From Escherichia phage FH3, in sequence record OR886155.1: DNA of 64,000 nucleotides. One strand, 5' to 3'. The notes beneath the pieces were generated by a model, which worked only from the letters and a program-made list of their open reading frames with translations, had not been told where the DNA came from and did no database searches. Numbering within the stretch: position 1 is the stretch's first letter; each line of letters opens with the position of its first letter. Positions 34,573 to 58,974 of this stretch are shown in pieces. Position numbers and translations under genes: made by a program.

Positions 34573-34584
34573 AGGAGATTTAAT

Positions 34585-35553: not shown

Positions 35554-35566
35554 TTAGGAGATAAAT

Positions 35567-37222: not shown

Positions 37223-37289
37223 GACCTAAGTCCTGCCTTCTATAATGTATATAGGGGGTAGGACATTTTTATTTATAAAAGGAGACGTT

Positions 37290-40200
37290 ATGGCTAACAT
37301 TAAACCGTGGGAAGAAGCTTCCAAAGCTCCTGCGTATCTGAATGCCTCTCCGGAGCAACAAGCTCAAATGAGAGAACAATATAAGGCAGCAGGTGGCTCT
37401 ATTCCTGAGGAACAACCAGTAGCACAACCACAACAAGAAGAACGTGGTGCTATAGGTGAGTTTGCTCAAGGTGTGTCAAATGCTCTTCAATCTGGTGGTG
37501 CAAATATTGCAGCTAGTGCTGCTAAAGGTATTGGTGGTTTAGTTGAGATTGGTGAGAATCTAGCTGGAACACAAACTAGTTATGGTAAGCGTATCCAAGA
37601 GAACTCTCAGAACCTTCTGAAAGAACGTATGGATAAGATTGAGGATGGGATTGGTAAAACTGTTGGTCAGTATGCTGGCGTTGCTGGTGATATTGGTATG
37701 ACTGTTGCTAATCCATTGGCTGCTGCTGCTATCATCGCAGGTCGTGAGACAGGTCGTGCGTATGCAGACCAAACACCTGAAGAGGGAGAAGATAAATCTA
37801 TTCTAGATGCGGCCTTAGTTGGTGGTGCTAACTATGCGGCTCAGAGAATTCTTCCGGGCGCTGTTGGTACAGCTGAGTCCACACTTGGACGTATCGGTCA
37901 GAACGTTGCTAGTAACGCAGTGGCTGGTGCTAAAGGTGGCGCTCTTGTAGGTGCTGCTGAAGCTCAGAACAAGCATGGAGATGATACAACCTTTGCTAAT
38001 GTATTAGAGGGTGCTATCGAAGAAGGTGCTATGGGTGCTGCATTTGGTGGTGCAGTTGGTGGGGTTCATGGTTTGATTAGCCGTCCAGACTCTGCTGTCT
38101 TCAAGAATACTCCAGAGTATGCGAAGACTGATATTGCTGCTGATGACGAACTAATTCGCAGTGCTAAGAATATTGATGAATTGAAAGAAGCCTACTCTAA
38201 AGCTGAAACTGCTAACGCTGCTTCTGCTCTGAATCTTCTGGATGAGAATGGATTCCGTATTACAGATGCTGTTGCTGTAGATTCTCCTGCTGCTCAGCGT
38301 ATCCTCAATACTGACCAAGCTCGCGCTGAGAAAGCTGCTTCCGTTCAGAAAGAACATTCCAACATTCCGGGCCTTAACCCTTTAGCTTCTCCTGCTAAAA
38401 CTCGTGGTAAAGCATTCGCTGATAACGAGCACAACCAGAAGCAGGCTGTTGCTATGAAGGATGCAATGGCTGATTATACCAAAGACAACACGAAAGCTCT
38501 TACAGATGTTCTAGATAATCTAGACCGTGAATTAACATCTCTCCGAGCTTCTGGTGATTTTACTGGTAGTCCGATTGATATTAAGAATCGTACACAAGCT
38601 GACCGTGATTTCATTGATGCTTACAAGACTTTCTACAATGAAGCAAATCGATTCAAAGCTCGTGATGGTGAAGACTTTAATAACTTTGTAGAGAAAGCTG
38701 CTGAACTACAGAAGATGGCTGATAATGTTTCTCCAGAGATGAAGAAAGCTATCGGTGGGTTGAAGAAACTGAAAGGTATGCCTGAAGGTTTTAATCCTAT
38801 CCAAGATGCTTACACTCTGAACAATACAGCTAAGTTCATGAGCAATCAAGACCGTGGTTGGACTTCCCTGACTGATGATGGATTCCGTGAGGCTTCTTCA
38901 CCTAGTCTGGTAATGAATACTCTCGGTGCTGCTAAGTATGCTCTGAATCGCTTCTCTTCTCAGCGTGCTCGCTCTCAACGTGTTAAGCAACAAGAATCTA
39001 ACAGTGAAGCTATCCGCTCTCTTGCTCGTGGTGATTTGGAAGTTGCTCGTGCTAAATCTACTGCTGATGAAGCTCGTGCTAAGCTGGAAGAAGAACCAGT
39101 TGTTGATGACATTAAATTTAAGACGCAAAATGACGTGGAAACCGAACCGGTTCGGGAGTCTTCTTCTAGTACTGTGACAGAAGAAAATCCTCCTTCTTCT
39201 GCTCCTCAAGAAACTCCTCTTACAGCTCGTGATTTAGTTGCTCAAAGACGTGCTATCCGTCAGGCTGAACAGCGTCGTGCTGAAGAAGAGGCGTTAGCTG
39301 CTCAAGAAGCTCCGGTCGAACAAGCTCCACAGGCTGAACCTCTCCCTGCTCGCAACCCTTTAGAGGAGCGTCGTGCAATGGAACAGCAACGTGCTCAAGA
39401 AGAGGCCGCACAAGCTCCAGAACCAACCGTAGAGGAACCAACAGTCAAAGCTGAGCCATTACCTGCCCGTGCTCCTAAAGCTCCTAAGGAGGCTGTACAG
39501 GATGTTAAACCGGCAAGTGGTGTAGAACGTTTAGCTGCTATGTCTAGTGCTGCCCGTCAGGCTACTAAAGATCGTGCAGAACGTTTTGCTCGTTCTCTGT
39601 ACTCTAAGGCTGCTAAGGCTAAAGCTACCGCTGAAAACTTCTTGGCTTATAAAGGTGATCCTAAGGAATTGATGCGTCGTATTCGTCAGGAAGACAATGC
39701 TATCAACACTGAACGTCATGAAGAAATGGCTCGTAACCAGCTGGCTTCACAGCAAGGTATTGCTACTGCTAAGAACAACACTGTACGAACTAATTTTGCT
39801 GAATGGGTTAAGGAACGTGGTCTGCCAGAAGACATTGCTACTAAGGCATTACGTGCTGAAGAGAAAGGTTTAGGTGGGAACGTTACTAACTTGGATAGTC
39901 TGAAACGTCGTGCTGAAAGGTTGTATCAGAAGCAGCGTGAAGATGAGTTTGATAGATTGTATCAACAAGCTCTAGAAGAGAACAAAGCTTTCGATAATAA
40001 GAATGCTCCTAAACTGGTTGACCAGAAGAAAGAGCTTCAGTCTGAGATTGATGCTTTGATTGATTCAGAACCTTTACGTCCTGCTCAGAAAGATGCTATG
40101 CGCAAGTTGATGAATGACTTTGTAGATGGAAAGTTTAAATCTTCAGAGAAAGCTGGTAGGGAAGAGGCTTTGGAAGTTGGTCAGATGAAGGATATTTGGG

Positions 40201-41711
40201 ATGGGTTTATTAACACCTATAACAGAGAAGTGAATGCCTTCAACAAAGCCAACAAGAACTCTCAATACGAAGCTGCTGCTAAGCATTTACAGGCTCGTGA
40301 AGAACGTCTTGCTACCCTCAGGAAAAAGGCTCAGGCTCGTTCGGATGCTAAAGCTGCTGTTGAGAATGAACGTAAAACCCTAGAGGCTATTGCAGCTCAG
40401 AAGAGTGAGATTGAGAAGATGATGGAAGGTTTACCTAAACCTGTTCGTGAGGCTCAGGAATCTCGTACATTGAAACAGTTGGCTGCTCACCACGATAAGA
40501 ACTCTCCGGTTCCTCCAGAGAAGTTCCGTAGTTATATTGAACGTATTCACAACGCCGAGTCAGATTACCTTGATCGTCAGCGTCGTTTAACTGATGCAGA
40601 GGAAGATGCTCGTCAGGCTAAGTGGAATAAGATGTATGAGCAAGCGGAAGAGATGAACCGTAAGTTTGATGTGGACAAGAGAGTTAAGCGCAGTGAAGAG
40701 CTTAAAGCGGCCCAAGAGCGAGAGAATGACCTTATGGCAGTACAACGTCAACGTGATGACATTCATCGCCGTCTGATGCGTACTATGGAAGATAAGGGCA
40801 TATCTAGAGAGGATGCTGAAGCGTTTGCTGGTTCCTACATGGATAACCGTTATGCACTTCTCGAGAAGCCTATGACTCCAACTGAACATCAGAATGCTCG
40901 CTCTCGTATTGAGGCTGATGTTGAGAAGTTCGCTAAGAAGTACGAATCAATGACTCCTATCGAGAAAGAGATTGTTAAGGTTACTGGGGATACTGAAGGT
41001 AAGCTTGATAACTTGGATGCTGATACTAGGAAGGCTATTGAGGAGGCTCAGAAGGTTGACTCTGATATTAAGAAACTGCAAGAGGAAGAGTTGGAGATGG
41101 AGAAGATTCGTTCTGCTCTGCCTGACGATGAAAGATCTCAAGCAAATTCTGATATCTTGGAAAGCATTAAACAACAGGAAGAGGTCTTTGCTGATAAAGT
41201 AGAGAAAGCTTTCTTGAGTGGTAAAAGCTTGGATGAGTTGGCTAGTGTGGCTGAAGTTTTAGACAGGGTTCATGGTGCAGATAAGGCTGGTAACAACCGT
41301 CGCTTTGTACGTGCATTGCAGACTGCTGCTGAAAACAAGAAGAAGTATGGTGATAATCCAGTAGCTTGGTTTAGTGCTGATGATTATTCTGCTATTGCTA
41401 AACTTGGTGCTTCTTCCGCAGGTGGTAACAAATCCAGAGCACTGGAGAAGATCTTTGGTTCTACAGCTGAACAGGCTAAGAGTAAGTTGCTTGGTAGGGA
41501 TGATGTAGCGAAGATGAGACGTGTAATTGAAGAGAACCCTGATATTAAGATTCCTTCTTACAAGACAACGAACCGTACTGAGTACTTGAAGTTCTTGGAG
41601 AAGTTTAATGACGAAGGGAAGCCGAAGATTAAACGTGGCTCATTGTCAGAGAAGCTTGAACGCAGTAAGCGTCAATCGAGACTCCGTGTAAGAGTTCGAC
41701 CTAAGGAGTGA
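37290..41711 (+). CDS. very large coiled-coil virion protein (ejection protein or tape-measure-like)
   Basis: About 1470 aa from MANIKPWEEA (AAGGAG RBS); Gly/Ala-rich N-terminus then long charged helical region; listed start 37245 probably too early. Confidence 0.45.
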   Translation: MANIKPWEEASKAPAYLNASPEQQAQMREQYKAAGGSIPEEQPVAQPQQEERGAIGEFAQGVSNALQSGGANIAASAAKGIGGLVEIGENLAGTQTSYGKRIQENSQNLLKERMDKIEDGIGKTVGQYAGVAGDIGMTVANPLAAAAIIAGRETGRAYADQTPEEGEDKSILDAALVGGANYAAQRILPGAVGTAESTLGRIGQNVASNAVAGAKGGALVGAAEAQNKHGDDTTFANVLEGAIEEGAMGAAFGGAVGGVHGLISRPDSAVFKNTPEYAKTDIAADDELIRSAKNIDELKEAYSKAETANAASALNLLDENGFRITDAVAVDSPAAQRILNTDQARAEKAASVQKEHSNIPGLNPLASPAKTRGKAFADNEHNQKQAVAMKDAMADYTKDNTKALTDVLDNLDRELTSLRASGDFTGSPIDIKNRTQADRDFIDAYKTFYNEANRFKARDGEDFNNFVEKAAELQKMADNVSPEMKKAIGGLKKLKGMPEGFNPIQDAYTLNNTAKFMSNQDRGWTSLTDDGFREASSPSLVMNTLGAAKYALNRFSSQRARSQRVKQQESNSEAIRSLARGDLEVARAKSTADEARAKLEEEPVVDDIKFKTQNDVETEPVRESSSSTVTEENPPSSAPQETPLTARDLVAQRRAIRQAEQRRAEEEALAAQEAPVEQAPQAEPLPARNPLEERRAMEQQRAQEEAAQAPEPTVEEPTVKAEPLPARAPKAPKEAVQDVKPASGVERLAAMSSAARQATKDRAERFARSLYSKAAKAKATAENFLAYKGDPKELMRRIRQEDNAINTERHEEMARNQLASQQGIATAKNNTVRTNFAEWVKERGLPEDIATKALRAEEKGLGGNVTNLDSLKRRAERLYQKQREDEFDRLYQQALEENKAFDNKNAPKLVDQKKELQSEIDALIDSEPLRPAQKDAMRKLMNDFVDGKFKSSEKAGREEALEVGQMKDIWDGFINTYNREVNAFNKANKNSQYEAAAKHLQAREERLATLRKKAQARSDAKAAVENERKTLEAIAAQKSEIEKMMEGLPKPVREAQESRTLKQLAAHHDKNSPVPPEKFRSYIERIHNAESDYLDRQRRLTDAEEDARQAKWNKMYEQAEEMNRKFDVDKRVKRSEELKAAQERENDLMAVQRQRDDIHRRLMRTMEDKGISREDAEAFAGSYMDNRYALLEKPMTPTEHQNARSRIEADVEKFAKKYESMTPIEKEIVKVTGDTEGKLDNLDADTRKAIEEAQKVDSDIKKLQEEELEMEKIRSALPDDERSQANSDILESIKQQEEVFADKVEKAFLSGKSLDELASVAEVLDRVHGADKAGNNRRFVRALQTAAENKKKYGDNPVAWFSADDYSAIAKLGASSAGGNKSRALEKIFGSTAEQAKSKLLGRDDVAKMRRVIEENPDIKIPSYKTTNRTEYLKFLEKFNDEGKPKIKRGSLSEKLERSKRQSRLRVRVRPKE

Positions 41712-42875: not shown

Positions 42876-43718
42876 TTACCAAGATTTATCTAACCATGTC
42901 CAGTCGAACAGGTCTTCCGGAGCCTGACCAACAAAGAGCAGCCGAGCATTCTCAAGCATCTTCTCTTCATCTTCAGTATCGAACTTCTTATAGTATTCCA
43001 TTCGTACTATATGATACATGGTCCACTTATCTGTAACACCAGCCAACAATTTAGCTGCTGCCTTCTTCCCTATTCCTTGACGTCGAAGCTGAAGCTTACC
43101 GCCCCACATAACTTCTTTACGTTCCCCACATCCGGGGATATTATCCGTACCATCTCCAATCAACATTTGATAGAAGAAGTTTTGCCATGAGACTAAATCG
43201 GATACATAGTGAGGAGGAACTTCTTTCTGTCTTTCTCCACAAGCCCAGCGATAATGCCATCCGGGAGTTATCAACAAATCCTTGTCTCTAGTACAGATGA
43301 TAGTATTCTTATCCCTACGTTGTCTTTCAGCTAGTGCATCATCAGCTTCTCTCCCAAAGACCTCAATGTATTCGTACTTGGCTTTAATGTAATCACCAAC
43401 GTTTTGCCAGTGAAAAGGTCTTTCTCCGGGAGGTCTGTTTGCCTTGTAGTCTTGCTGCTTAGCAACATCAAAACGGAAGTTACCGCCTTCGCTGAAGTAG
43501 AACACAACCTTACTGCAACCTGAGCGAGCAATGATTGTATCTATCTTGTACTGAAGTCGTTCAATCATGAAATTGTAATCAACTGGAACACGTCCTGTGT
43601 CAAGAAAGGGATGCTCCTGAGTAAGAGCACCCACTTCATATCGAAGAACGTCAGCATCCACTATAGCAACTTCAGGGAGCTTAACTTCTTCCATAAATAT
43701 CATCCTGAGCTTGAGCAA
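42876..43718 (-). CDS. 5'-3' exonuclease / flap endonuclease (FEN family)
   Basis: PIN-like N-terminus with acidic residues and H3TH-type GDGTDNIPG motif; true start may be an internal Met near 43694-43703. Confidence 0.75.
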   Translation of the reverse strand: MLKLRMIFMEEVKLPEVAIVDADVLRYEVGALTQEHPFLDTGRVPVDYNFMIERLQYKIDTIIARSGCSKVVFYFSEGGNFRFDVAKQQDYKANRPPGERPFHWQNVGDYIKAKYEYIEVFGREADDALAERQRRDKNTIICTRDKDLLITPGWHYRWACGERQKEVPPHYVSDLVSWQNFFYQMLIGDGTDNIPGCGERKEVMWGGKLQLRRQGIGKKAAAKLLAGVTDKWTMYHIVRMEYYKKFDTEDEEKMLENARLLFVGQAPEDLFDWTWLDKSW

Positions 43719-44570
43719 TAATCCAATCTAGATCTGAGACTGCTGATTCGATGGTTGAGTCATTAAACAGTAGATATGTTTTTCTCTGTTCGCCTTCAAT
43801 ATATGAACGAGAGTCTCCATCAAAAGAGCAACCATCTCTAAGAACTTGGACAACTTGGACATGGAAATTCTTTTCTAGTTCTCGTACCTCTGCATCAAAA
43901 CCTCCGTCAGTAAACACGACAATATCATCCTGACCTAGCCCTTCTTGTTTGATACTTTTTACAGCAAGATTCCCCATATGATTGTTGCCAAACATAGGTT
44001 TTAAGAAGTCTTCACTTGTAGAAATCATCAAATCTCTTACAGACTTCCCTCCCCATTCTGGTCTATGTTTTTCTTTCCATTCACGATCTTCATAGCGTGC
44101 TAGAAAATTTTCTAGAGGTATTCCTAGTGCAGCAGCAGCTACTCTGTACATTGGCTCCTTGAAGGATTTGGTTGAATATCCGTGGTGGTATGAATGGGCA
44201 TTGACCCAAGCATTGGCTATCGTATCTTTACCACAACCCGGAGGCCCATTAAGAATTACTACTAAAGGCTTATAGTGGGAATCTCCCACCATATTGGTCA
44301 GTGCTGGATTGCCTTGAGATTCCATTTCTAATTGCTCCGTGTGGTCATGTGAGTAATCTACTGGAGAAGTTTTGTTACCAGTAACTTTAGGTAAAATCGC
44401 TCTAGTTGTTTCTACGTATCTACCGCCATCAACATTGATTTGAAACTCTACAAGTTCATTCTGTAATTCATACCCTGATAAGTTGGATAGCTCCTCCAAC
44501 TCATCTCTGACGAAATTTAAATGTTTGATTTTAATTGCAAGAGCTTTCTTTAAAGCTTTTACCTCTTCAT

Positions 44571-44580
<10 letters not shown>
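43681..44580 (-). CDS. P-loop nucleotide kinase (dNMP kinase-like) with N-terminal extension
   Basis: NGPPGCGKDT P-loop and IVVFTDGG Walker-B-like segment. Confidence 0.55.
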
Positions 44581-46066
<1,486 letters not shown>

Positions 46067-46067
<1 letters not shown>

Positions 46068-46327
46068 TATTTTATTCCACGTTCTTTCAGAGCTTCTAAC
46101 AATCCATTGTGATTGGCAGCACATTCTGTGTACTGGTCCTGATACCACTCCAATGTAGTGGCTAGTGCTTTTCCTTGAGCACTCTCTAAAAGAGGTAGGT
46201 CAACCCTACATTCAGCTTTTAGGTTTGTTGGTAAGGGCATTGATTGCCTGCTGTTGTCGCTCATTGAACAAGCTGACATACTCATCACTAGCGCAGACAT
46301 TATAAAAAACTGGTTTAGTTTTCTCAT
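46067..46327 (-). CDS. candidate o-spanin (lipoprotein), overlapped-frame
   Basis: MRKLNQFFIMSALVMSMSAC signal plus lipobox-like Cys; starts inside 46212-46562 in another frame and extends past its end. Confidence 0.35.
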
Positions 46328-46562
46328 AATGCATCTCTTTATAAACGGTTTCCGTGTTCTTCTTCCAGTTAGATAAACCGGTAAGAACTCTCTGAGCAAC
46401 TTCATCAGCTGCTCTATTTCTTTCAATCTCTAACTCTTGTTGATGTTTCTCTTTATCCAGATTACTACTGTCTGTTTGGTACTCGTTAAACTTCATACCA
46501 CCAAAGAACACAAGAGCTGAGAAAACGATAAACCCTAAGTTATCACTTAATGTGTTTTGCAT
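46212..46562 (-). CDS. candidate i-spanin (N-terminal TM plus coiled coil)
   Basis: LGFIVFSALVFFGG TM segment then charged helical region; contains the o-spanin candidate start. Confidence 0.35.
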   Translation of the reverse strand: MQNTLSDNLGFIVFSALVFFGGMKFNEYQTDSSNLDKEKHQQELEIERNRAADEVAQRVLTGLSNWKKNTETVYKEMHYEKTKPVFYNVCASDEYVSLFNERQQQAINALTNKPKS

Positions 46563-46572
46563 GTTGTCTCCA

Positions 46573-46598
46573 ACGAAAAAAGCCACCCGGAGGTGGCT
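46573..46598 (-). terminator. rho-independent terminator (minus strand)
   Basis: Minus-strand AGCCACC-TCCG-GGTGGCT followed by UUUUUU. Confidence 0.45.
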
Positions 46599-46620
46599 AA
46601 GCTATAACAAGGAGAGTTAT

Positions 46621-47034
46621 TTATATGAATTTCTGCATACCTTTGATACGAGGGTTATCATCACCAACTCTCGATTTACAGTAAGCGATAAAAGATTCAG
46701 TATTGAGGTTATCTTTTTGGGAACCCCACTGAAGGTTGTCTGCTCTATTGTTGCTCGGATTATCATCCAGATGCATAACAACAGCGTTAGGAAAAGGTTT
46801 ATCACCGTGAAAAGTCTCACACACTAAGATATGAATCCTTTTCTTAAACTTTCTTTTCTTGTTTACAAACACCATTCTTCCATCTTTCTCTCTATATCCG
46901 CTATATGGTTTTCCTACGAAAAGCCTAACTCCACCATTATTCATTATGGCTGTGAAAGGCTTAATCTTAACTCTACCAAAAGATGATACGGAAAGGAAAT
47001 CATAATAGGGATGATCTTTCCAGACTTCTTCCAC
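46621..47034 (-). CDS. HNH homing endonuclease
   Basis: HLDDNPSNNRADNLQWGSQKDN motif. Confidence 0.8.
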   Translation of the reverse strand: MEEVWKDHPYYDFLSVSSFGRVKIKPFTAIMNNGGVRLFVGKPYSGYREKDGRMVFVNKKRKFKKRIHILVCETFHGDKPFPNAVVMHLDDNPSNNRADNLQWGSQKDNLNTESFIAYCKSRVGDDNPRIKGMQKFI

Positions 47035-47043
47035 TATTTATCC

Positions 47044-47790
47044 TCAAAATGGGCTATCGTTGTCGTCTTCATAAGTAGAAGCAGGCTCTTTATCAATCGT
47101 AGGGATTGAAGGAGTAGCTTCTTTCTGCTCTGTTTCAGAAGCACGAGTAATTTCACGACCAGCCAGAGGCATGTTCTTAGCGTCATTAGCTTGAGTAAGC
47201 AGGTTGCGCTGGAACGGGAACATCAGTTGATAGGATGCTACGTTCTCATCGGTTTCAGCATATGGTTCGAAGAATACCAGAGGACTACGAGCTTCACCAA
47301 CTGCTGCACGATATTTGGTTGGGATTGGAGAAATGGTCTTGATGGAGTTTTTAACTTCACCAGCTTTGTTAGTGTAAGAGTTAACCAGAATGTTAACAGG
47401 CTGACCTAACAGCACATCCTTGAACCAAGACAGATCACCTTTCAGTGCTTGAATACTTGGGTCAATCATCTTGCAAAGATCAAGAATACCAGAGTTCTTA
47501 GCTCGTGGGTTTACATCATAACTCTTGAACTGGCAAGCCGGACGTGGTTCTAATGCCTTACCATCGGAATCTTTACCAGTAGCATCAACACCAATCAGCT
47601 CGAAAGCTAAATCCATACGGAAAGCCGGATTCTTAGGAGTTACTGCTTTGGTCTTCGGGTCAATCCAAGGGTCACGATTGTGAACACCCAAACCTACTAC
47701 ACGAACGATACGTGCTTCGTACTCACCATCAGGGATTACATCGTAGTTGGATTTACGGGAAGCAGTTGCGATAGTTGGAATCATAGACAT
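47044..47790 (-). CDS. putative single-stranded DNA-binding protein
   Basis: 248 aa with acidic C-terminal tail ending ...YEDDNDSPF; first gene after an AT-rich promoter region. Confidence 0.4.
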   Translation of the reverse strand: MSMIPTIATASRKSNYDVIPDGEYEARIVRVVGLGVHNRDPWIDPKTKAVTPKNPAFRMDLAFELIGVDATGKDSDGKALEPRPACQFKSYDVNPRAKNSGILDLCKMIDPSIQALKGDLSWFKDVLLGQPVNILVNSYTNKAGEVKNSIKTISPIPTKYRAAVGEARSPLVFFEPYAETDENVASYQLMFPFQRNLLTQANDAKNMPLAGREITRASETEQKEATPSIPTIDKEPASTYEDDNDSPF

Positions 47791-48338
47791 ATTTTAATTT
47801 CCTTATTTAATTTGAAAGATTGTTGCTCTCTTTGAGCGGTTATGTATATTATACATTACGCTTATACCGATAAGAGTACTATATAATATAAGTATCTTTG
47901 GTAGTAGATATAACACACTAGTAATGTATATATTGTATAGCTGATAAAGTTATTGCAGGCTTGTATATTGGGCAATTCACAGAATCCCTTGCAAGTACCG
48001 AAGGGCAGGAGCCACCTGCGAGATAAAAATAGAGAATTAAGGAATCCTTGATTTAGGTTGTAGGGACTCCTAGGGACTTTGATTCTCTATTTAAAAGAAT
48101 ATTAAATACTTATTACCTAAATAATTAACTAATTTACTTAAAACCAATTCAAAAAGAGAGTAGCTAAAAGACCTATTCCTAAGAAAGCTAAGAAGTAAAT
48201 AATATAAGTTACCATTCAAATAAACCTTTAAAGTTAGTTTGTTCTACTATCCTCTGATAGTGAAGATTAGAATCAGCTTGTTTCTTTAACATCTCATTAT
48301 ATTGATCTCTGATAGAGTCTTTATATACCACAGGTTCT

Positions 48339-48842
48339 TTAAATAATGAGATCTTGTTCTTTTCTTCTTTCATCGAAAACCTTCCTAATCTCTTGCAGAG
48401 AAACAGCTTTATAGTTAATTTGCTCCATTGATGTACAGAAATATCTACAATCATCAATTACATGGTTATGAGTATGAGCATAAATATTAAACTTCCCTCT
48501 CATCTCATCAGTGTGAATAGGAATATGAGTTACCCAAAACTCTTTATATTTATAATCACCAGAGATTCTACGGAAGACTTTCATCATATCAGGGAGAAGT
48601 TCTAATCTGTCATGATTCCCTAAGACCAGATGCTTCTCTCCTTTTACTTCAGCGATGATATCAAGGGCATATTTTTCAAACACCCAATCACCAGTAAAGA
48701 AGACTTTATCACGTTCAGTTACATGATCAAAAGCGGCTAGAATTACTTTGTCATGCTCTTCAATGTTTTTAAATTGCTTACGAAAACTACAAATGTTGCG
48801 ATGGCCTAAGTGACCATCTCCTGCAAAATAGACTTCAGCCAT
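48339..48842 (-). CDS. calcineurin-like metallophosphoesterase
   Basis: GDGHLGH ... GDWV ... GNHD ... H.H metal-ligand motifs. Confidence 0.65.
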   Translation of the reverse strand: MAEVYFAGDGHLGHRNICSFRKQFKNIEEHDKVILAAFDHVTERDKVFFTGDWVFEKYALDIIAEVKGEKHLVLGNHDRLELLPDMMKVFRRISGDYKYKEFWVTHIPIHTDEMRGKFNIYAHTHNHVIDDCRYFCTSMEQINYKAVSLQEIRKVFDERRKEQDLII

Positions 48843-49560
48843 AAAGACCTCTTAAATTGTACACCCATCACAAGTTAAGTCACCTAGCAGTGACAGGGAA
48901 AGTAATCTGGATTGCTCATCGCTATACAGTTGATCAATCTCTTCTTTAAGTTTTGCCAACTCTATGAAATTGATAAGTTGACCATGTTCGAGGCAGTCTG
49001 TTTTTAGTACGAACAAAACTTCAGCGTCGGTTGAATCTTCACTTGAATATTTATCAATGTATTCCATTTTTTACTCCTATTAATTATGACCAAGATTTAG
49101 CTTTTACTTCGACGTATGTTTTAACCTCACCTTTCAAGACTTCCTGAGAAGCAATTGCACTTTCCTCAGAGTGATGTACAACGGTGATCTCTTTCTTCCC
49201 AATTCTGTAAGTGTGAATCCAAATCATACTTCTTCCTTATATTCCCAATTTCTTTCATAATACCCAGAGTTGTAGTTTAGGGCGCACTTCTCGGCCTCTT
49301 CTATGTCATCAGTGTTTAGAATATTTACCCACCCTCCAGCTTCATCAAAACCTTCTTCTTCCTCGTTAATCCATACACTATACTTTTTCATCGAGAAGTT
49401 CTTCCCCAATCTTTTACATAGCATCGACCGTTAACCCACTTCGTCTCTGACTTAAACTCTTGAGACAATCTCACTTCACAGTCTTCTCTACTGGCATCTC
49501 CTCCGATATCAATCAGATATAGGAATAGAGCTATACCTAAAGCCCAAAGAATTATCTTCT

Positions 49561-49953
49561 TCATCGAATCACCAAAGGCTCTTCAGAGTACACAGGAGCG
49601 GCTATTTCTACAGGAGGTGCTGCCCTAAGGTCATTAAGTCTTACACCCTTCAGCATACCGTCTAGGTGGTCCTTTTGGGGGATTCCAACAGGGAAGTCGT
49701 CAATCCAGATATCTACAAAGAAACCTAGCTGCCGACATACCTCATCCTTCTGGACACCATTGCAAAAGATGATAGGAATTTGCAAACACTCTGCATCAAT
49801 CTTAATATCGTGATTATCATACCCATTAGGCTCTGCAAAGCGATAAGTTACAAAACGTACATCATAGCCCTTTTCTTGCATTAAGGCCACCACAGAGCGC
49901 CACAGCTTTTTATCTGAGGTGTAAGTGTCATCGTAATCTAAACCAATATTCAT
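49561..49953 (-). CDS. hypothetical protein, possible HAD-like hydrolase
   Basis: N-terminal LDYDDT resembles HAD motif I (DxDxT); weak. Confidence 0.25.
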   Translation of the reverse strand: MNIGLDYDDTYTSDKKLWRSVVALMQEKGYDVRFVTYRFAEPNGYDNHDIKIDAECLQIPIIFCNGVQKDEVCRQLGFFVDIWIDDFPVGIPQKDHLDGMLKGVRLNDLRAAPPVEIAAPVYSEEPLVIR

Positions 49954-50100
49954 TCCCCTAGCTCCTCATGTTCATGACCACAAATAGGGCATTTGTATAA
50001 ATGGACAGGTGTTTCGAAGATCTCTGACCATTGAGTATCTATCCTTTTAGATACCGAGCCACATTTATCACATTCAGATTCTAACATCTCTAAATCCTTT

Positions 50101-50128
50101 AGACAAGAAAAGCCGCCCGAAGGCAGCT
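50101..50128 (-). terminator. rho-independent terminator (minus strand), near-copy of 2771-2798
   Basis: Minus-strand AGCTGCC-TTCG-GGCGGCT followed by UUUCUUGUCU. Confidence 0.4.
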
Positions 50129-50690
50129 TCTTATTTAACTGTTCACTTTAGCTTCAAGTGTTTCATTTTCAATACTCAAGTCAATCACTACACCCGTAAG
50201 CTCAACGACTGCTTGGCGAAGGGCATCTTTACCCATAGAGTGTACTTGAGATAAGAAGAAAGCTTTACCTTCTTCCGTGGATATGGTTTCTTTCAGTTCA
50301 GTTGCAGTCATTCTTTTCCTCTCTCTCTTTCCATAATTCAGCCAGTTCTAAATAATATTGTGCTTCATCAGCACGTCCTTGTTCACTACAGATGGCGCTT
50401 TGACGATAACACCAATCCGATGGCATCTCTTCCACTTCAATCTCCTTGTTACGAACCAATCAATAAGAATAGTTCATTCGTCTTATTTGTTCACTCTGCC
50501 AATGCAGGTATCTCTAATCTCTTAATTGTGAATGCTTTGTCTGGAAACTTTCGAACTAGCTCCGCTGCTTTGCTAATTGCTAAGTTCTCTGTTTCAAAGA
50601 TACAGAATTGACTATTCAGCGCGGTAATAGTGGAGCCACCACTGAAGATGGCCCAAGATTTATAATAATCACGAACACTCATAACCCACC

Positions 50691-50843
50691 TTAGTGCGTA
50701 TGCATCCAGTTAAGTCCAATCTGACAATCAGATGCCAGAGGACATTCCATGTTCAAGTACTCACCAGCTTTCTTAACGCAAAGCTCAGTGTGCTCTTTGA
50801 GTTTCTGTACATCGTTACGATTAACTGAGAACTGGCCCTCATC
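50691..50843 (-). CDS. DNA polymerase (family A), exon 2
   Basis: Encodes DEGQFSV...MECPLASDCQIGLNWMHTH*, matching the Pol A C-terminus after motif C; a stop lies immediately upstream in frame, so it cannot be an independent gene. Confidence 0.7.
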   Translation of the reverse strand, partial: DEGQFSVNRNDVQKLKEHTELCVKKAGEYLNMECPLASDCQIGLNWMHTH

Positions 50844-51441
50844 CATTTATGTTATTCCCAAATTACTTCGGGTATCGGACTATATCATAACAGCATAGCT
50901 AATTTGCTGTTGTTGGCGCTTCGAGGGTTTCCCTGTTAACCCCCTACTCCCGCAGGATAGTCTCTACACTTTCCACTTTCGAATCCATCTACAAGCGATT
51001 CCAAAGCTCACACCAAACCTTTCTGCAAGAGCAACACCAGTGCATTCATTGTTAAGCCAGAACTCTTTAGCAGCATTCTGTCTTTCTCTGTTTCTGCCAG
51101 TGTTTGACTCGATAGCATGTGCACTACCTTCTAAGATTTCTAGATGGTCAGTATTGCAACAAGCTCTATTCTTGCATTTATGGTTAACTTCATAACCGTC
51201 AGGGATGTTTCCAAATTTCTCTTCCATGACGTATCTGTGATACATGACCCATTTGCCATTTATCATTTTTCGAAAGTAACCATCTTTATTTAGTTTGTGT
51301 GAGATAGGGATGATACATCCTGTGCTAGTTGTTTCTAGCACTAGATCTTTCTTAGCCATATCACCTCCTAATAGCTTAGCTCGGTATTGCCCTCAACTTA
51401 ATGGTCGGGTTTCACCGAGTTCACCAACTTTTACATGCACA
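50844..51441 (-). mobile_element. group I intron in the DNA polymerase gene, carrying an HNH ORF
   Basis: 5' exon ends ...AUGCAU; intron nt 11-16 GUGCAU can form P1 with a U-G pair at the splice site; GACUA (50958-50963) and GAUAUAGUCC (50877-50886) match R/S (P7) elements; last intron nt is G; ligation restores ...IDMH-DEGQ... Confidence 0.7.
50964..51359 (-). CDS. intron-encoded HNH homing endonuclease
   Basis: YEVNHKCKNRACCNTDHLE motif; own RBS AGGAGGTGAT; entirely inside the predicted intron. Confidence 0.7.
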   Translation of the reverse strand: MAKKDLVLETTSTGCIIPISHKLNKDGYFRKMINGKWVMYHRYVMEEKFGNIPDGYEVNHKCKNRACCNTDHLEILEGSAHAIESNTGRNRERQNAAKEFWLNNECTGVALAERFGVSFGIACRWIRKWKV

Positions 51442-53142
51442 ATGAAGTTTATGCATATCAATTACCTTAGCACAACGAACCTTATCTTTCTCAATCCACT
51501 TGTTAAGGAACATCATAGCATATTTCATAACAACAGCACCAGCACATTGCAGGAGTGTGTTAAGGGCTTTATGAACCATAACTTTACCAGTGGCATCTCG
51601 TCTCATTGTAATCTTACGACCATCAACACCAATCAAGTATCCTTGAGCAGCTTTCTCTGTCATACGATCAATGAGGATTGCAATACATGGGTTCTCTGCC
51701 AAGAAACGTGCTCGCATCACTGAACCTTCGTCAGCCCCACCACCTACAATTGAACCAAGCTTAGCATCGCCAGCACCGTAGTTGAATGCATAGATAAACG
51801 TTTTAGCGTTGTCACGAGTAGGAAGACCAGCAAGTTTCTGGTTGTGGGAGTGGATATCACCTTCAAGGAGAATATCACGATACATAATAGCAGAAGCTAA
51901 ACCACGTTCTGCCAGAGCTTTCTTAGCTGGGTTGTTCTCTTCAATTGCCTCAGCAAGCATATCCCTACACTCTTTAATGAGGTAGTGAGCGAGCATACGA
52001 AGTTCAAGCCCAGAACCATCATACCCTAAGAATACTTCTTTACCAGCGGGTATGTAATATTTGTAAGCACCTACAGGTTTGTCTTTCTTCCCCGGTTTAC
52101 CTTTCTCATAAATTACGTTAGTACCTTTTCGTATATAACAACCATCAGGAACAACGTTAGTAATAACGAAAGGACGAGAATGATCACTGTCTGAGTTATA
52201 GTCAGACTCAAACAAACTGCGACACTCGTGACCAAACAAACCACGGGAGGGAATATTAACCACGATACGATGTTTGAATCGAAAAGTCGGCGTAGCGCAG
52301 CTGTTAGCTTCTGCCGAAAGTTTACCATCTTCGCGTTCCTTTGCTATGAGTCCACTGATAAGACCTAGCCTGTGAGCCGCTACAACGCGTCTCTTAAGCA
52401 AACTTCCGACACTCCCTAGCTCACCCCCTAACCCTTCTTCAAGAGTCTCCTCGAGGTTTGTAGGAGCTGTAGGCCACTTGTTTGAAGTGGCTAGTGCTTT
52501 CTTAATCTCATCAAACGTTACAGGATTACGTCGATTCGGGTTTAATCCCAAACCAAACACGTAAGCCTTCATATAGTTCTTAGTTTTAAACCTAAAATGC
52601 TTTTCTAAGAACTTCTTAATATCAGCGTCAACCATCTCGGCTGTCTGCTTCTGCTTAGCATTGCCTCGCATCCAAGCAGTATACCATGCTTGGTATGTTC
52701 CATACTTTCGCATGTCTTTCTTAATTTCGAAAGTATTCCAAGGTTTCTTAGATACGTTAAACTCTGGAGGAAGAAAGCCCTCATCCATAAGAGCTTCTTT
52801 AACTCGTGCATCTTTCGATGGGTCAAAGTCTACGTATTCGACACAGGTGAAAGCTCCACCAATATCTTCTCTCTTCAGCCCAACCCTATCACAATAGGCT
52901 TGAGGCCACTTCTGTAAAGCTCCAGACTTCTTAAACGGCTTCATGTAAGTAGAGCCATCTAATCTCATCTTAGGTAAGAGAGGAATCAACTCTCTGTCAA
53001 TATTAACAATAATCTCTTTAAGGAGGTGAATATACCACCGAGCATTTCTTCGGTTGAAACTCACTCCGTGCTTTGCTTGCTTAGAGATTATATCAGCGAC
53101 AGTCATCTCTGTCAAAAATGGAAGAGCGTCCGGGTTGCTCAC
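51442..53142 (-). CDS. DNA polymerase (family A), exon 1
   Basis: Motif A GYDGSGLELRMLAHY and motif B RDNAKTFIYAFNYGAGDAKLG present; motif C absent from this ORF; the last 9 codons of the listed ORF are intron sequence. Confidence 0.85.
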
Positions 53143-53158
53143 TTTATACTCCTTTAAA

Positions 53159-53581
53159 TTATTGGTAAAGTAAATCTGTAAATGCTTGGTTATCTTCTAC
53201 TACATTCAACATGGTAGCTTCATCACTATAAGCCCTAACCGTCCCGTTGACAACTGTCCAAGGAGGAGGTGGAGGTGGTGCATGGTTAGCCCTAGCTTCA
53301 CGAGGTTGCTCTCGTACTAAATGAGCCACAACCCTTTGGTTAGCGACTTCTTCTCTTTCTCGGATAGCTCTTTGGATGTAAGCCAGCTTCATACCCCAAG
53401 CTTCTTCAAACTCTTGAGGGTGTTTATCACTGATAACCACATATTGACGTTCAGGAATACCAGATCGAATCTCCGATAATAATTCATGGAACAGATCTAG
53501 TTCGTGCTCAGTGAGATTCATTTCGATATCATCCCACTTAAGAACTAAGAAACGGTTTTGGTGTCTAGCTGGTAATGGCAT
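53159..53581 (-). CDS. hypothetical protein with poly-Pro stretch
   Basis: ORF track, 140 aa. Confidence 0.35.
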   Translation of the reverse strand: MPLPARHQNRFLVLKWDDIEMNLTEHELDLFHELLSEIRSGIPERQYVVISDKHPQEFEEAWGMKLAYIQRAIREREEVANQRVVAHLVREQPREARANHAPPPPPPWTVVNGTVRAYSDEATMLNVVEDNQAFTDLLYQ

Positions 53582-53584
53582 AAC

Positions 53585-53869
53585 TCAACCTTTTGGGAAT
53601 GGCATTAAAGATTCCATAGCAGATTTAATTTCGTTATTGATTCGTGAGTCACGATAAGAGATAAACTTACCTTTGCTATCACGTAACATCACATGGGTTC
53701 TGGCTGTTTTGTGAGGGAGCAATGTGATACTAGTTGGAATAGCATCAATCCCTACAGCGTATTTGTCAATAGTCTTACTTTCAGCCAACAGATAAGACCA
53801 AGTACGCGGTTTCTGCTCCGGGCGGTTAGGGTATGTGTCTCGAATCTGTACCATAGCTAACTTATTCAT
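53585..53869 (-). CDS. small protein, paralog pair member 1
   Basis: ...KTARTHVMLRDSKGKFISYRDS...LMPFPKG. Confidence 0.4.
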   Translation of the reverse strand: MNKLAMVQIRDTYPNRPEQKPRTWSYLLAESKTIDKYAVGIDAIPTSITLLPHKTARTHVMLRDSKGKFISYRDSRINNEIKSAMESLMPFPKG

Positions 53870-53870
53870 G

Positions 53871-54128
53871 TTAAACTCCTTTAGGGAATGGGATGAGGTT
53901 TTCTACTGCAACACGATATTCTTTCTCTACATCTTTATTCTTATAAGAAATGAATTTCCCATCAGCCCCACGGAGGATTACATTAGTACGAGCTGTTTTT
54001 GGATTATGACCAATCTGGTTTGCAATTAGGCTGATGTTGTGTTTGACATCATGGTTATTAGTGAATTTCCACTTAGCCAGACGGTTAGTCCAAACATCAA
54101 TGATAGTTACGGTTTTTACAATAGACAT
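53871..54128 (-). CDS. small protein, paralog pair member 2
   Basis: ...KTARTNVILRGADGKFISYKNK...LIPFPKGV. Confidence 0.4.
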   Translation of the reverse strand: MSIVKTVTIIDVWTNRLAKWKFTNNHDVKHNISLIANQIGHNPKTARTNVILRGADGKFISYKNKDVEKEYRVAVENLIPFPKGV

Positions 54129-54197
54129 AATTATTACCTAAGAAGTTTAATTTGGTTTATATAAAAGAAAAGGCCACCTGATTAGGCAGCCTTTGTT

Positions 54198-54491
54198 CTA
54201 GAGACGAAGCCAAGTTTGATAGTCAGCTTCAGTGTAATGGTTGTTTCGAGAGTTGTTTTTCATTCCCTTGAGAGTAGCTCTCAGGTCAATGTTATGCTCT
54301 CTCCTTGTTCTATTCGGGTCTGTATCTTCTAATAGATGGGAGTGATCACTACAAGAGTAGTGCTTATAGTGGTCCCTGTATCCTCTACTTGGAGAATACT
54401 TGGTCATTAAAGTTGCAACTCTTTTTACACCCTCTGCTTTACAGAATTTACAATAAGTGTGAATGGTACATCTTTTTGTTTCTGCTGACAC
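54198..54491 (-). CDS. hypothetical Cys/His-rich protein
   Basis: ORF track. Confidence 0.3.
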   Translation of the reverse strand: MSAETKRCTIHTYCKFCKAEGVKRVATLMTKYSPSRGYRDHYKHYSCSDHSHLLEDTDPNRTRREHNIDLRATLKGMKNNSRNNHYTEADYQTWLRL

Positions 54492-54509
54492 TATAACCTC
54501 TTTATGAGC

Positions 54510-54788
54510 TTAAAGCTCCTTTGCGTGCTCCAGCTGCTTTTCCAGCTCGATCACCACTTTTGCCGCCGTTTGAACGGTTTGAGCTGACTGATTCAACACG
54601 TAAGTTGCTTGACGCATTAGAGCCTCCAGACTTGACAGCTCGTTTGTGTCCAACGTCTTTACCTCTGACAGCAGCTTTTCCATCGCGCTTTTCAACGATG
54701 CGACGTGCACGGTGGCGCTGAGCATCTCCGCTCTTGCTCCCAATTCCCGTTTCACCGCGCTTGATCGCAGTCCTTCTTTCTTGTGCAT
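54510..54788 (-). CDS. hypothetical coiled-coil protein (one of two overlapping frames)
   Basis: ORF track; the alternative frame 54502-54816 encodes a basic low-complexity product. Confidence 0.25.
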   Translation of the reverse strand: MHKKEGLRSSAVKRELGARAEMLSATVHVASLKSAMEKLLSEVKTLDTNELSSLEALMRQATYVLNQSAQTVQTAAKVVIELEKQLEHAKEL

Positions 54789-54815
54789 AATCTCTTTTTC
54801 CTACATGATCTGCCA

Positions 54816-55145
54816 TTAGATTTCTCCTGATTCTCTTTGATTAAAGGTGTGGATGGCGTGGCAATTAGCACACAATATCCTGCACTTCCTCATCTCTTCT
54901 TTTACTTGAGATAAAGATCTGGTGTGCCCTTTGGAGAGTTCGAATGACTTAGTTAATGGATTTAAATGATCAAACTGAAGAGCAGATGCGTGGCCCTTAA
55001 AGCCACACTCAGAGCATCCATAGAATGTTTTAACTCTACGAATAAAAGCTAGTTGCCTAACTCTTCTTCTCTCGTTATCTGCCTTTCTCTTATCTCTATT
55101 TCCTGGGTCGGCCCATCTACACGAGTCATTGCAAAACCTCTGCAT
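54816..55145 (-). CDS. HNH endonuclease
   Basis: CSECG...FDHLNP...CANCH. Confidence 0.7.
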   Translation of the reverse strand: MQRFCNDSCRWADPGNRDKRKADNERRRVRQLAFIRRVKTFYGCSECGFKGHASALQFDHLNPLTKSFELSKGHTRSLSQVKEEMRKCRILCANCHAIHTFNQRESGEI

Positions 55146-58966: not shown

Positions 58967-58974
58967 GTAAATCC

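Follow-up and report, generated by a model that had tools for sequence, protein, structure and literature searches.

An overlapped gene pair on the minus strand of Escherichia phage FH3

The window, a 64,000-nt stretch of the Escherichia phage FH3 record OR886155.1, was found to represent a Kuravirus, a phiEco32-like podophage, with 99.9% identity to Escherichia phage 1-6af. Two overlapping minus-strand genes that the original prediction had described as an i-spanin/o-spanin architecture were located, and both open reading frames were confirmed to the exact base. The first (46212..46562; 351 nt, 116 aa, ATG start) is the ortholog of phiEco32 gp39 and is referred to here as the i-spanin, the predicted inner-membrane subunit. 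The second (46067..46327; 261 nt) is the ortholog of the correctly started phiEco32 gp38 and is referred to as the o-spanin; it encodes an 86-aa precursor of a predicted 67-aa mature lipoprotein. The o-spanin start lies 235 nt downstream of the i-spanin ATG and is therefore in the +1 frame; the gene runs 145 nt beyond the i-spanin stop, where its own stop overlaps the start of a macro-domain gene. According to the ORF coordinates, the two genes share a dual-coding overlap of 116 nt (46212..46327, minus strand), equal in length to that of phiEco32, which specifies i-spanin residues 79-116 and o-spanin residues 1-39. An orthologous pair is annotated as i-spanin/o-spanin by the Center for Phage Technology (CPT) in Escherichia phage Paul (MN045231).

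The i-spanin ATG is preceded, at a spacing of 5 nt, by a Shine-Dalgarno sequence, GGAGA (46567..46571, minus strand), which is marked in SpaninDataBase and annotated as an RBS in Paul. Directly 5′ of this RBS, a terminator scan detected a terminator-like hairpin (AGCCACC-TCCG-GGTGGCT followed by T6; 46575..46598, minus strand) that is annotated 'terminator' in Paul and is conserved in Kuravirus and Suseptimavirus loci. A GTG at 46586, the outer limit of the original prediction, lacks an RBS and falls within the stem of this hairpin, and for these reasons it was rejected as the i-spanin start. An upstream TCTCC was also predicted to pair with the GGAGA, which could sequester the RBS; the pairing had no supporting covariation and no claim is made for it. 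The o-spanin has a weak Shine-Dalgarno sequence, AGAG (46335..46338, minus strand), embedded in the i-spanin codons K-E-M, which is likewise marked in SpaninDataBase (for NJ01) and as an RBS in Paul; in the distant relative L009 the corresponding position reads AAGGAG. A TTG at 46426 and an ATG at 46405 were discarded as o-spanin starts, since some 30 charged residues would precede the signal peptide. The scan that gave a sigma-70-like promoter match within the pair (46327..46299) yielded fewer sites than it did on shuffled sequence, and for this reason the match was considered chance.

Membrane targeting features of the two products

Consistent with the single N-terminal TM segment originally predicted for the longer product, the Kyte-Doolittle profile of the i-spanin peaked at 2.23 over residues 9-23 (LGFIVFSALVFFGGM), with no second hydrophobic segment. 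The orthologous Paul protein is identical in this region and has a TMpred TMD annotated at residues 8-23, placing the putative transmembrane codons at approximately 46494..46541 on the minus strand. The N-terminus, MQNTLSD, which would be cytoplasmic, carries no positive charge, and thus the positive-inside rule gives no support for an N-in topology; SpaninDataBase flags a missing N-terminal positive charge for the same i-spanin family (Kongari et al. 2018, PMC6139136). Over residues 3-116 the protein matched PHROG 1152, 'Rz-like spanin', at E=1.8e-37, and it was 100% identical to the phiEco32 protein, a listed member of family JH2. Families in Kongari et al. require a minimum of 40% identity to a member across a minimum of 40% of the length, and on sequence identity the i-spanin belongs to family JH2/PHROG 1152. 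An AF2 model of low confidence (mean pLDDT 63, pTM 0.23) comprised helices at residues 3-81 and 93-111 joined by a loop at 82-92, a layout that may resemble the two-helix arrangement of Rz; the SpaninDataBase secondary-structure table lists 54 of the 88 periplasmic residues of the phiEco32 i-spanin as helical (PMC6139136). Cys90 (codon 46293..46295, minus strand) occupies an invariant alignment column, has a counterpart in the Felixounavirus (Felix O1-type) Salmonella phage Mushroom, and is a candidate for an intermolecular disulfide.

The shorter ORF, which had been called lipoprotein-like, was found to have an N-terminus (MRKLNQFFIMSALVMSMSAC) that fits the PROSITE PS51257-type lipoprotein pattern. 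Its lipobox, M-S-A-C (residues 17-20, codons 46268..46279, minus strand), ends in Cys20, the predicted lipidation site, and the +2 position is occupied by Ser21 and not by Asp, the inner-membrane retention residue. For the Paul o-spanin, whose signal peptide is identical, LipoP SpII cleavage is annotated at 19/20 with a score of 18.03, and SpaninDataBase gives the phiEco32 o-spanin as 86/67/19 aa, with a signal peptide of 19 aa (PMC6139136). A six-frame scan of the whole 64 kb identified the o-spanin as the only ATG-initiated ORF with a lipobox signal; the four other matches were all TTG or GTG ORFs of 40-59 aa, and shuffled sequence yielded a mean of 2.2 matches. The o-spanin lipobox ORF is more than chance. 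Two further cysteines of the mature protein, both predicted to be periplasmic, are invariant in the o-spanin alignment: Cys40 (codon 46208..46210, minus strand), which was present in all relative loci examined, and Cys69 (codon 46121..46123, minus strand), which aligns with a Cys of the Mushroom o-spanin.

The best PHROG match of the o-spanin was phrog_2425 (E=3.3e-26). When counted by eye, 85 of its 86 residues were identical in phiEco32 and about 95% in NJ01; tblastn gave 75.6% identity with ECBP2 and 84.9% with KBNP1711. These values point to membership of family NJ01 of Kongari et al., which comprises NJ01, ECBP2, KBNP1711, and phiEco32. An AF2 model of the o-spanin was of low confidence (pLDDT 46), and both models served solely for coarse helix placement. 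Scans of both proteins against the Pfam and NCBIfam profiles returned no family above threshold and therefore provided no link of the pair to the lambda Rz or Rz1 families, and a PDB sequence search gave matches at chance level only (E>0.3).

Selection and conservation in the overlap

The portion of the o-spanin ORF that lies outside of the i-spanin gene was compared with five relatives. In four of these the o frame displayed a pS of 0.70-0.80 versus a pN of 0.09-0.28, and the two control frames of the same portion had pN at or above pS; the fifth, NJ01, is too close for informative pN/pS. Within the overlap, nucleotide identity to the four relatives was 94, 88, 91, and 75%, above that of either flank in each case, with NJ01 at about 95% throughout. 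These patterns indicate that both reading frames are under purifying selection across the relatives. Each of the six IMG/VR relatives, the most distant with an i-spanin of 48% identity, kept the overlapped architecture and lipobox, and the pair was intact in about 98 related phage records. Homologs of each gene were also detected by tblastn in many further phage genera, often annotated as spanin. When the full 86-aa o-spanin was the query, coverage was at least 80% in 194 of 194 matching phage records, and the alignments began at residue 1 in most of the matches listed. A protein-database search with the o-spanin returned six clusters, mostly of a mis-started 57-aa form.

Alleles split by homing endonucleases

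In seven related phages, a cassette encoding an HNH/AP2-type endonuclease was found to split the pair at the equivalent of window position ~46275, immediately upstream of the lipobox codons. Along with the endonuclease, the cassette supplies a recoded i-spanin tail and a replacement signal peptide for the o-spanin, such that the overlapped pair becomes separated. Remnants of the former gene ends persist in the split alleles, and the direction is therefore insertion and not deletion. It is a balanced possibility that homing endonucleases recurrently target this spanin locus and that the FH3 window carries its un-invaded allele. The split allele was considered as a new phenomenon and this was rejected, as the same kind of transition is already described for the T5 family (T5/Shivani, with a GIY-YIG enzyme), its direction having been left open (Kongari et al. 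2018, PMC6139136). If true, the split allele would be a second, independent, and directional case after T5/Shivani and not a new principle. The intact and endonuclease-split alleles form a clean natural series of how overlapped genes can be pulled apart.

Genomic position and transcription

The original prediction had placed the pair far from the endolysin, and this was borne out: the pair resides in the minus-strand block 42876..63948, about 19 kb from and on the opposite strand to the GH24 endolysin gene (26332..26823, plus strand; PF00959 E=6.8e-32, phrog_7 'endolysin' E=3.4e-46). The endolysin and a holin candidate (26084..26302, plus strand) are both encoded within the plus-strand block of late genes, 12615..41711. 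The holin candidate is a 72-aa protein with a single N-terminal hydrophobic segment that matched phrog_11161, 'holin', at E=1.1e-49 and gave no match in Pfam and NCBIfam searches. No spanin candidate was detected beside the endolysin, the adjoining next gene being that of a tail protein.

An exact match to TAATGTATA, the middle promoter motif of the phage sigma factor (gp36-type), was identified upstream of the gp40 homolog (47850..47858, minus strand) and is the likely source of transcripts reaching the spanin genes. In the SU10 paper, CDS25-68 are classed as middle genes and a middle promoter is located between CDS37 and CDS38; the middle-gene class of the FH3 spanins rests on that assignment by homology. 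Given this position in the middle-gene block, downstream of the gp36-type promoter and the hairpin, the spanins are probably made earlier than the holin and endolysin of the late operon. Early synthesis would be harmless, since spanins stay inactive until the wall is degraded. Read-through of the conserved hairpin in the middle operon could also set the dosage of the spanins, uncoupled from the late lysis genes.

Assignment as a two-component spanin

We put the probability at about 0.9 that the minus-strand pair of 46212..46562 and 46067..46327 is the two-component spanin (i-spanin plus o-spanin) of this phiEco32-like Kuravirus coliphage, the class being defined as in Summer et al. 2007 and Kongari et al. 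2018. The basis of the assignment is architecture and targeting signals, from which the lysis function is inferred. The features of an overlapped two-component spanin that could be tested in the sequence were present, namely an N-terminal TMD on the one product, a lipobox without Asp at +2 on the other, the gene overlap in the +1 frame, and periplasmic cysteines on each. A unimolecular spanin of the T1 gp11 type, in which a single polypeptide has a lipobox at its N-terminus and a TMD at its C-terminus, was rejected, as the TMD and lipobox are on separate products and the lipoprotein has no C-terminal hydrophobic segment.

Other readings of the locus were weighed against this assignment. The lipoprotein could act in superinfection exclusion or receptor masking (like T5 Llp or lambdoid Cor), with an unrelated TM protein and an overlap due to incidental packing in the middle operon. 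A middle-gene block away from the holin and endolysin is a typical position for host-takeover or exclusion genes, and the best PHROG of the lipoprotein, phrog_2425, has no assigned function. This reading is nevertheless improbable: the TM protein matches the spanin PHROG 1152, both genes co-occur in overlapped form in the six IMG/VR relatives as well as in Mushroom, the homologs of each gene in further genera are often found under spanin annotations, and the endonuclease-split alleles rebuild both genes intact. Moreover, the window has no other spanin candidate, and T4 shows that unlinked spanins are normal.

We consider it just as improbable that the pair is a spanin by descent that has become dispensable or vestigial in this phage, with another factor disrupting the outer membrane. 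Some phages are known to lack spanins (Kongari et al. 2018, section 15, PMC6139136), the upstream hairpin could limit expression, and a literature search for lysis-function experiments on the phiEco32-type or Felix O1-type spanin family found none. Against this stand the strong purifying selection on both genes and their intact state in about 98 related phage records, also after invasion by homing endonucleases. That only the 116-aa membrane protein is real, with the lipobox ORF a chance frame and the true downstream gene a 57-aa ORF from 46240, is least credible of all: although most GenBank/RefSeq records annotate only this 174-nt version (starting MPLPTNL), the protein-database clusters are mostly of 57 aa, and the Shine-Dalgarno sequence before 46327 is weak, (i) the ATG, basic n-region, hydrophobic core, and lipobox Cys are kept in all relatives (to 48% i-spanin identity) and in Felixounavirus; (ii) tblastn covers at least 80% of the 86 aa in every matching record; (iii) the split alleles gain a new signal peptide fused precisely to the lipobox codons, which would be pointless unless the signal were needed; (iv) the 57-aa form has no targeting signal; and (v) o-spanins are routinely mis-started by gene callers owing to an anti-overlap bias (Kongari et al. 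2018, PMC6139136).

Comparison with known spanins

The spanin pair, including its remote position from the endolysin, is already known and catalogued in the literature. SpaninDataBase (PMC6139136) holds an entry 'Phieco32, ovl' for an overlapped minus-strand pair with the i-spanin at 35417-35768 and the o-spanin at 35272-35533, consisting of genes of 351 and 261 nt with a 116-nt overlap and products of 116 and 86 aa; the families assigned by Kongari et al. 2018 (PMC6139136) are JH2 for the i-spanin and NJ01 for the o-spanin. In the ZCEC16 paper, too, the spanins are described as overlapping, with a TMD and a lipobox. FH3 shares with phiEco32 and Paul the same gene lengths, overlap, strand, hairpin, RBSs, and neighbors (macro-domain and sigma-factor genes), and it differs from Paul at one i-spanin residue and at 2 of 86 o-spanin residues. 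Unlike phiEco32 and Paul, FH3 has an extra NUMOD4/HNH endonuclease gene just 5′ of the hairpin, a gene it has in common with 1-6af, SU10, and CHD5UKE1.

Among more distant systems, the pair of Mushroom (CPT_Mushroom124/123) was the closest by sequence. Its i-spanin is in the same family, JH2, with 34% identity (E=1e-15), Felixounavirus spanins being about 33% identical to the FH3 i-spanin, and the i-spanins of Felixounavirus and FH3 have the common motif EKTKPxFYNVC..D.YV..FNE; the CPT-annotated Mushroom o-spanin aligned with that of FH3 at E=2e-11. Mushroom also resembles FH3 in the overlapped architecture, similar signal peptides, an o-spanin C-terminal motif of LE(W/F)Y.D...C, and a terminator-like hairpin 5′ of the i-spanin RBS. 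However, the mature o-spanins are just 27% identical and form separate families by the 40%/40% rule, and Mushroom is a myovirus in which the genome context is different.

Similarities to lambda Rz/Rz1 were confined to organization and predicted topology: an inner-membrane protein of type II topology whose helical periplasmic domain has two segments (here from the low-confidence model), a small outer-membrane lipoprotein in the +1 frame, and periplasmic cysteines in both subunits. Sequence similarity to the lambda proteins was undetectable, with no Pfam Rz or Rz1 match. In addition, Rz1 is fully embedded in Rz, whereas the FH3 o-spanin gene continues beyond the i-spanin stop; a penta-proline stretch occurs in lambda, compared with only a PLP motif in the FH3 pair; and Rz/Rz1 are the last genes of a lysis cassette. 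The overlapped architecture of P2 LysB/LysC, reportedly described by Summer and colleagues in 2007, is like that of FH3 in that the o-spanin gene begins inside the i-spanin gene and terminates downstream of its end; the P2 proteins belong to other sequence families, and their genes are in a lysis cassette beside the holin and endolysin. T4 PseT.3/PseT.2, at 117 and 83 aa, are close in size to the FH3 pair, and the T4 o-spanin has a predicted C-terminal helix, as in the low-confidence FH3 model; the T4 genes have a separated architecture and dissimilar sequences. The T4 spanin genes are unlinked to the endolysin and holin genes e and t (Kongari et al. 2018, PMC6139136), and thus the distance between spanin and endolysin in FH3 is not new.

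Proposed mechanism of outer membrane disruption

Based on these features, the 86-aa o-spanin precursor would be cleaved and lipidated at Cys20 to give a 67-aa lipoprotein, which, with Ser at +2, would be directed by Lol to the outer membrane. The i-spanin would be anchored in the inner membrane by its N-terminus and extend a mostly helical C-terminal body. The subsequent steps are modeled on lambda Rz/Rz1 (Berry, Rajaure, Young and co-workers, summarized in Kongari et al. 2018, PMC6139136). By analogy, the C-terminal ends of the two subunits would bind in the periplasm, giving disulfide-linked complexes that span from the inner to the outer membrane through the peptidoglycan mesh and that would remain inert as long as the murein is intact. 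Once the holin frees the GH24 endolysin and degradation of the wall follows, the spanins would move laterally, undergo a conformational change, and fuse the inner membrane with the outer, removing the last barrier to phage release.

Annotation of the pair in related records

A curated spanin database and at least one expert annotation already include the pair, which, as the expected outer-membrane-disruption module of a well-sampled genus, has small discovery value; its practical value is in annotation. In most kuravirus records, including the phiEco32 RefSeq record, where it is still listed as a 57-aa hypothetical protein, the o-spanin is truncated to 57 aa and devoid of the signal peptide and lipidation site. 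This truncation would mislead the mining of lysis genes in phages that are therapeutic candidates. In the record of phage 1-6af, both spanin genes are listed as hypothetical.

Reading frames and products of the pair

Spanins are the two-component system for outer-membrane disruption at lysis, with lambda Rz/Rz1 as the prototype. The original prediction placed an overlapped spanin-like pair on the minus strand, and both ORFs were found there, at 46212..46562 (-) and 46067..46327 (-). The first (i-spanin, 116 aa) is read from an ATG at 46562 to a stop at 46212 and has GGAGA five bases 5′ of its start codon; a TCTCC further upstream can pair with this ribosome-binding site (RBS). The GTG at 46586, with which the longest ORF begins, was rejected as the start codon, as it lies inside a hairpin stem and is without an RBS. 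The second (o-spanin, 86 aa) runs from an ATG at 46327 to 46067 and is in the +1 frame, since its ATG is 235 nt downstream of the i-spanin ATG. It overlaps the i-spanin gene by 116 nt and extends 145 nt beyond the i-spanin stop, which is the overlapped architecture that had been proposed.

The i-spanin was expected to have one N-terminal transmembrane segment and a charged body; its sole hydrophobic segment was indeed found at residues 9-23 (Kyte-Doolittle maximum of 2.23), with the remainder charged. Its topology is left without support because the N-terminus has no positive charge. The lipoprotein-like character claimed for the o-spanin was likewise recovered: in its N-terminus, MRKLNQFFIMSALVMSMSAC, a basic n-region and a hydrophobic core precede the lipobox MSAC, and this N-terminus matched a PROSITE PS51257-type pattern (Cys20). 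The residue at +2 after Cys20 is Ser, so the protein is without an inner-membrane retention signal. Across all six frames of the window, five lipobox-signal ORFs were detected, of which the o-spanin was the only one initiated by ATG; the other four, TTG/GTG ORFs of 40-59 aa, are consistent with background, since shuffled sequence yielded a mean of 2.2.

When compared with profile libraries, the i-spanin matched PHROG 1152 ('Rz-like spanin') over its full length (E = 1.8e-37), and the o-spanin matched phrog_2425, to which no function is assigned (E = 3.3e-26), as well as a spanin PHROG weakly; no Pfam or NCBIfam model matched either protein. By tblastn, i-spanin homologs were identified in 412 phage records, about 300 of them at <60% identity; the latter include Felixounavirus, Erwinia, Proteus, and Klebsiella phages, many annotated as i-spanin/o-spanin. 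The full-length o-spanin frame was detected in 194 records, each with a match to 80% or more of the 86 aa. The last third of the i-spanin and the second half of the o-spanin showed the strongest conservation, and the cysteines of both periplasmic domains (i-spanin C90; o-spanin C40 and C69) were invariant. This agrees with the general rule for two-component spanins, which have periplasmic cysteines available for disulfide bonds between molecules (Kongari et al. 2018, PMC6139136). AlphaFold2 predictions were of low confidence and are read for coarse layout only: (i) the i-spanin (pLDDT 63) as helix 3-81, a loop (82-92) covering the most conserved motif, and helix 93-111; and (ii) the o-spanin (pLDDT 46) as two short helices after an N-terminal half that is disordered.

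Previously catalogued counterparts

Megablast of 45600..47100 matched 94 phage records, of which Escherichia phage 1-6af was the closest (99.9% identity), followed by SU10 (96.9%) and phiEco32 (96.2%). Because nearly all are Escherichia/Shigella phages of the genus Kuravirus (subfamily Gordonclarkvirinae), the window is, as judged from its matches, part of a phiEco32-like podophage of the C3 morphotype.

The phiEco32 spanins were catalogued by Kongari et al. (2018, PMC6139136), who placed the i-spanin (116 aa) in the overlapped family 'JH2' with NJ01, ECBP2, KBNP1711, and the Felix O1 group, and the o-spanin (86 aa, of which the signal takes 19 and the mature protein 67) in a family of four that also contains NJ01, ECBP2, and KBNP1711. 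Their supplementary entry ('Phieco32 ovl -1 35417 35768 35272 35533 ... 116') tabulates the same lengths and overlap as in the window and marks the same RBS strings, and the two i-spanins are 100% identical; o-spanin starts had to be shifted in that study to regain a LipoP signal. Escherichia phage Paul (MN045231, annotated by the Center for Phage Technology, CPT) has a 351-nt i-spanin gene with a TMpred transmembrane domain (TMD) at 8-23 and a 261-nt o-spanin gene with LipoP SpII cleavage at 19/20 (score 18.03), the signal peptide being identical to that of the window. Overlapping spanins with a TMD and lipobox have also been described for the kuravirus ZCEC16 (2026 paper). More distantly, the CPT-annotated spanins of Salmonella phage Mushroom were related to the i-spanin (34% identity, E = 1e-15) and o-spanin (27% identity, E = 2e-11), with EKTKPxFYNVC..D.YV..FNE and LE(W/F)Y.D...C as common motifs. 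The pair is thus an ordinary spanin pair, previously catalogued and not new.

Selection on both frames and endonuclease genes at the locus

Selection was examined in an alignment with five relatives (NJ01, KBNP1711, ECBP2, 101114UKE3, and an 88-kb IMG/VR contig of 48% i-spanin identity), of which NJ01 was too close to inform the pN/pS comparison. For the four more distant relatives, the part of the o-spanin ORF outside the i-spanin gene had a pS of 0.70-0.80 and a pN of 0.09-0.28 in the o frame, and a pN at least equal to pS in the other two frames; the i-only part displayed the matching pattern in the i frame. Nucleotide identity in the overlap (94, 88, 91, and 75% to these relatives) was above that of either flank, as would be expected under dual coding. 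Constraint within the overlap is stronger on the i frame; the o frame, here the signal peptide, accepts residue substitutions that leave its character intact. All six IMG/VR loci retained a +1-frame ORF in which a basic n-region and hydrophobic core precede an (M/L)S(A/S)C lipobox. This purifying selection makes it very unlikely that the pair is a vestigial spanin.

Two endonuclease genes were encountered at the locus. The first, a 137-aa NUMOD4 and HNH_3 gene at 46621..47034 (-), sits between the gp40 homolog and a hairpin and is likely a free-standing homing endonuclease; it is also found in 1-6af, SU10, and CHD5UKE1, whereas phiEco32 and the majority of other kuraviruses lack it, only 72% of the query being covered there, in two pieces. 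The second, of HNH/AP2 type, is encoded by an insert of about 545 nt (545 nt in KM01) that splits the pair. It is present in nine of the 98 related records, which come from seven phages (KM01, E20-1, EK010, Bas86, Bas87, PAS59, and SU7). The split loci span 1201..2241 in KM01 (locus L013) and 1492..2529 in SU7 (locus L010), with the insertion point at about window position 46275. When split and intact alleles are aligned, they match perfectly as far as nt 288 of the unit, and homology begins again at TCAGCTTGT, the S-A-C codons of the lipobox (TCA GCT TGT), to which a new signal peptide is joined exactly. The insert turns the overlapped pair into a separated one by providing (i) a recoded i-spanin tail (..FNQRQKEAERVLKSKE*); and (ii) the new o-spanin signal peptide, whose coding sequence overlaps the endonuclease gene at its 3′ end. 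Dead fragments of the former signal-peptide ORF and i-spanin tail are still there, and because these remnants persist, the direction of change was insertion. Kongari et al. (2018, PMC6139136) reported an equivalent split, with a GIY-YIG enzyme, in T5 and Shivani; the HNH/AP2 split would therefore be a second example, here with a clear direction.

That the genes instead encode a receptor-masking or exclusion lipoprotein and an unrelated membrane protein is similarly improbable, given that both co-occur across many phage genera and were rebuilt together after the homing endonuclease insertion. Most GenBank/RefSeq kuravirus records, among them 1-6af, the phiEco32 RefSeq entry, ShigP1, and 101114UKE3, start the o-spanin at an internal ATG equivalent to window position 46240 (MPLPTNL...), and the resulting 57-aa ORF (46067..46240 (-)) is devoid of a signal peptide, lipobox, or lipidatable Cys; ShigP1 labels it 'o-spanin', 1-6af annotates both spanin genes as hypothetical, and the Paul record carries the correct 261-nt gene. 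That only this 57-aa ORF is real is barely credible in view of the conserved signal peptide and the split alleles.

The spanin reading of the pair is, by contrast with these alternatives, supported by the architecture, the lipobox, the PHROG 1152 match, and the catalogued orthologs. The i-spanin is predicted to be anchored in the inner membrane and the o-spanin to be a lipoprotein targeted to the outer membrane, with conserved cysteines in both. By analogy with lambda Rz/Rz1, the two subunits would meet across the periplasm through their C-termini and be joined by disulfides into complexes. In the established lambda model, spanin complexes are restrained by intact murein; if this also applies here, early build-up of the spanins would be harmless.

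Transcriptional context

In SU10, CDS25-68, which include the spanins, were classed as middle genes on the basis of their homology with phiEco32, and a middle promoter was located between CDS37 and CDS38 (SU10 paper). An exact TAATGTATA motif was detected in the window at 47858..47850 (-), upstream of the gp40 homolog. This gp36-type promoter motif has four copies or near-copies on both strands within 100 nt of this intergenic region (47840..47939): 47850-47858 (-), 47922-47930 (+), 47840-47848 (+), and 47931-47939 (+). Downstream, the order is gp40 homolog, HNH endonuclease, hairpin, i-spanin, o-spanin, macro-domain gene, and sigma-factor gene.

The terminator-like hairpin (AGCCACC-TCCG-GGTGGCT then T6; 46575..46598 (-)) has a 7-bp stem with 5 G-C pairs and a tetraloop, lies 13 nt before the i-spanin RBS, and is kept across Kuravirus and Suseptimavirus. 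In the Paul record it carries the annotation 'terminator', and the felixounavirus Mushroom has at the same position a hairpin whose sequence is unrelated (GGCTCC-TTCG-GGAGCC then T5; locus L012, just upstream of 2459). The spanins may be transcribed by read-through of this putative terminator.

The macro-domain (Appr-1-p processing) gene at 45627..46067 (-) (PF01661, E = 7.2e-11) has an ATG that overlaps the stop codon of the o-spanin (TAATG), so the two genes may be translationally coupled. It is replaced by another gene in distant relatives (locus L009 and the suseptimaviruses SU7 and 101114UKE3), with a 74-aa ORF in its place in the latter two. A sigma-70-like promoter (TGGACA-18 nt-TATAAT, 11/12 matches; 45626..45655 (-)) is directly upstream of the phage sigma-factor gene (44960..45607), and a corresponding promoter was reported for SU10 CDS32 (SU10 paper).

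Distance from the endolysin and holin candidate

Based on ORFs of at least 140 aa, structural and late genes form a plus-strand block at 12615..41711, and a minus-strand block extends from 42876 to the window end. The GH24 endolysin and holin candidate that had been assigned to the plus-strand block were both located between tail genes, at 26332..26823 (+) (PF00959, E = 6.8e-32) and 26084..26302 (+) (72 aa, phrog_11161), and the claimed separation holds, the spanins being about 19.2 kb away on the opposite strand. This distance is real yet unsurprising: T4 is a well-known case of unlinked spanins (Kongari et al. 2018, PMC6139136), and the kuravirus layout of lysis genes was noted in earlier literature. 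Read by eye, the endolysin sequence shows the catalytic motif E-8-D-5-T, and its N-terminus is not hydrophobic. In the holin candidate, the one hydrophobic stretch is N-terminal and leads into VNA|VHP, so that it resembles a cleavable Sec signal peptide and not a stable TMD. The same doubt was raised for its ZCEC16 homolog, for which only a signal peptide, but no TMD, was predicted (ZCEC16 paper); its identity as the kuravirus holin therefore seems doubtful.
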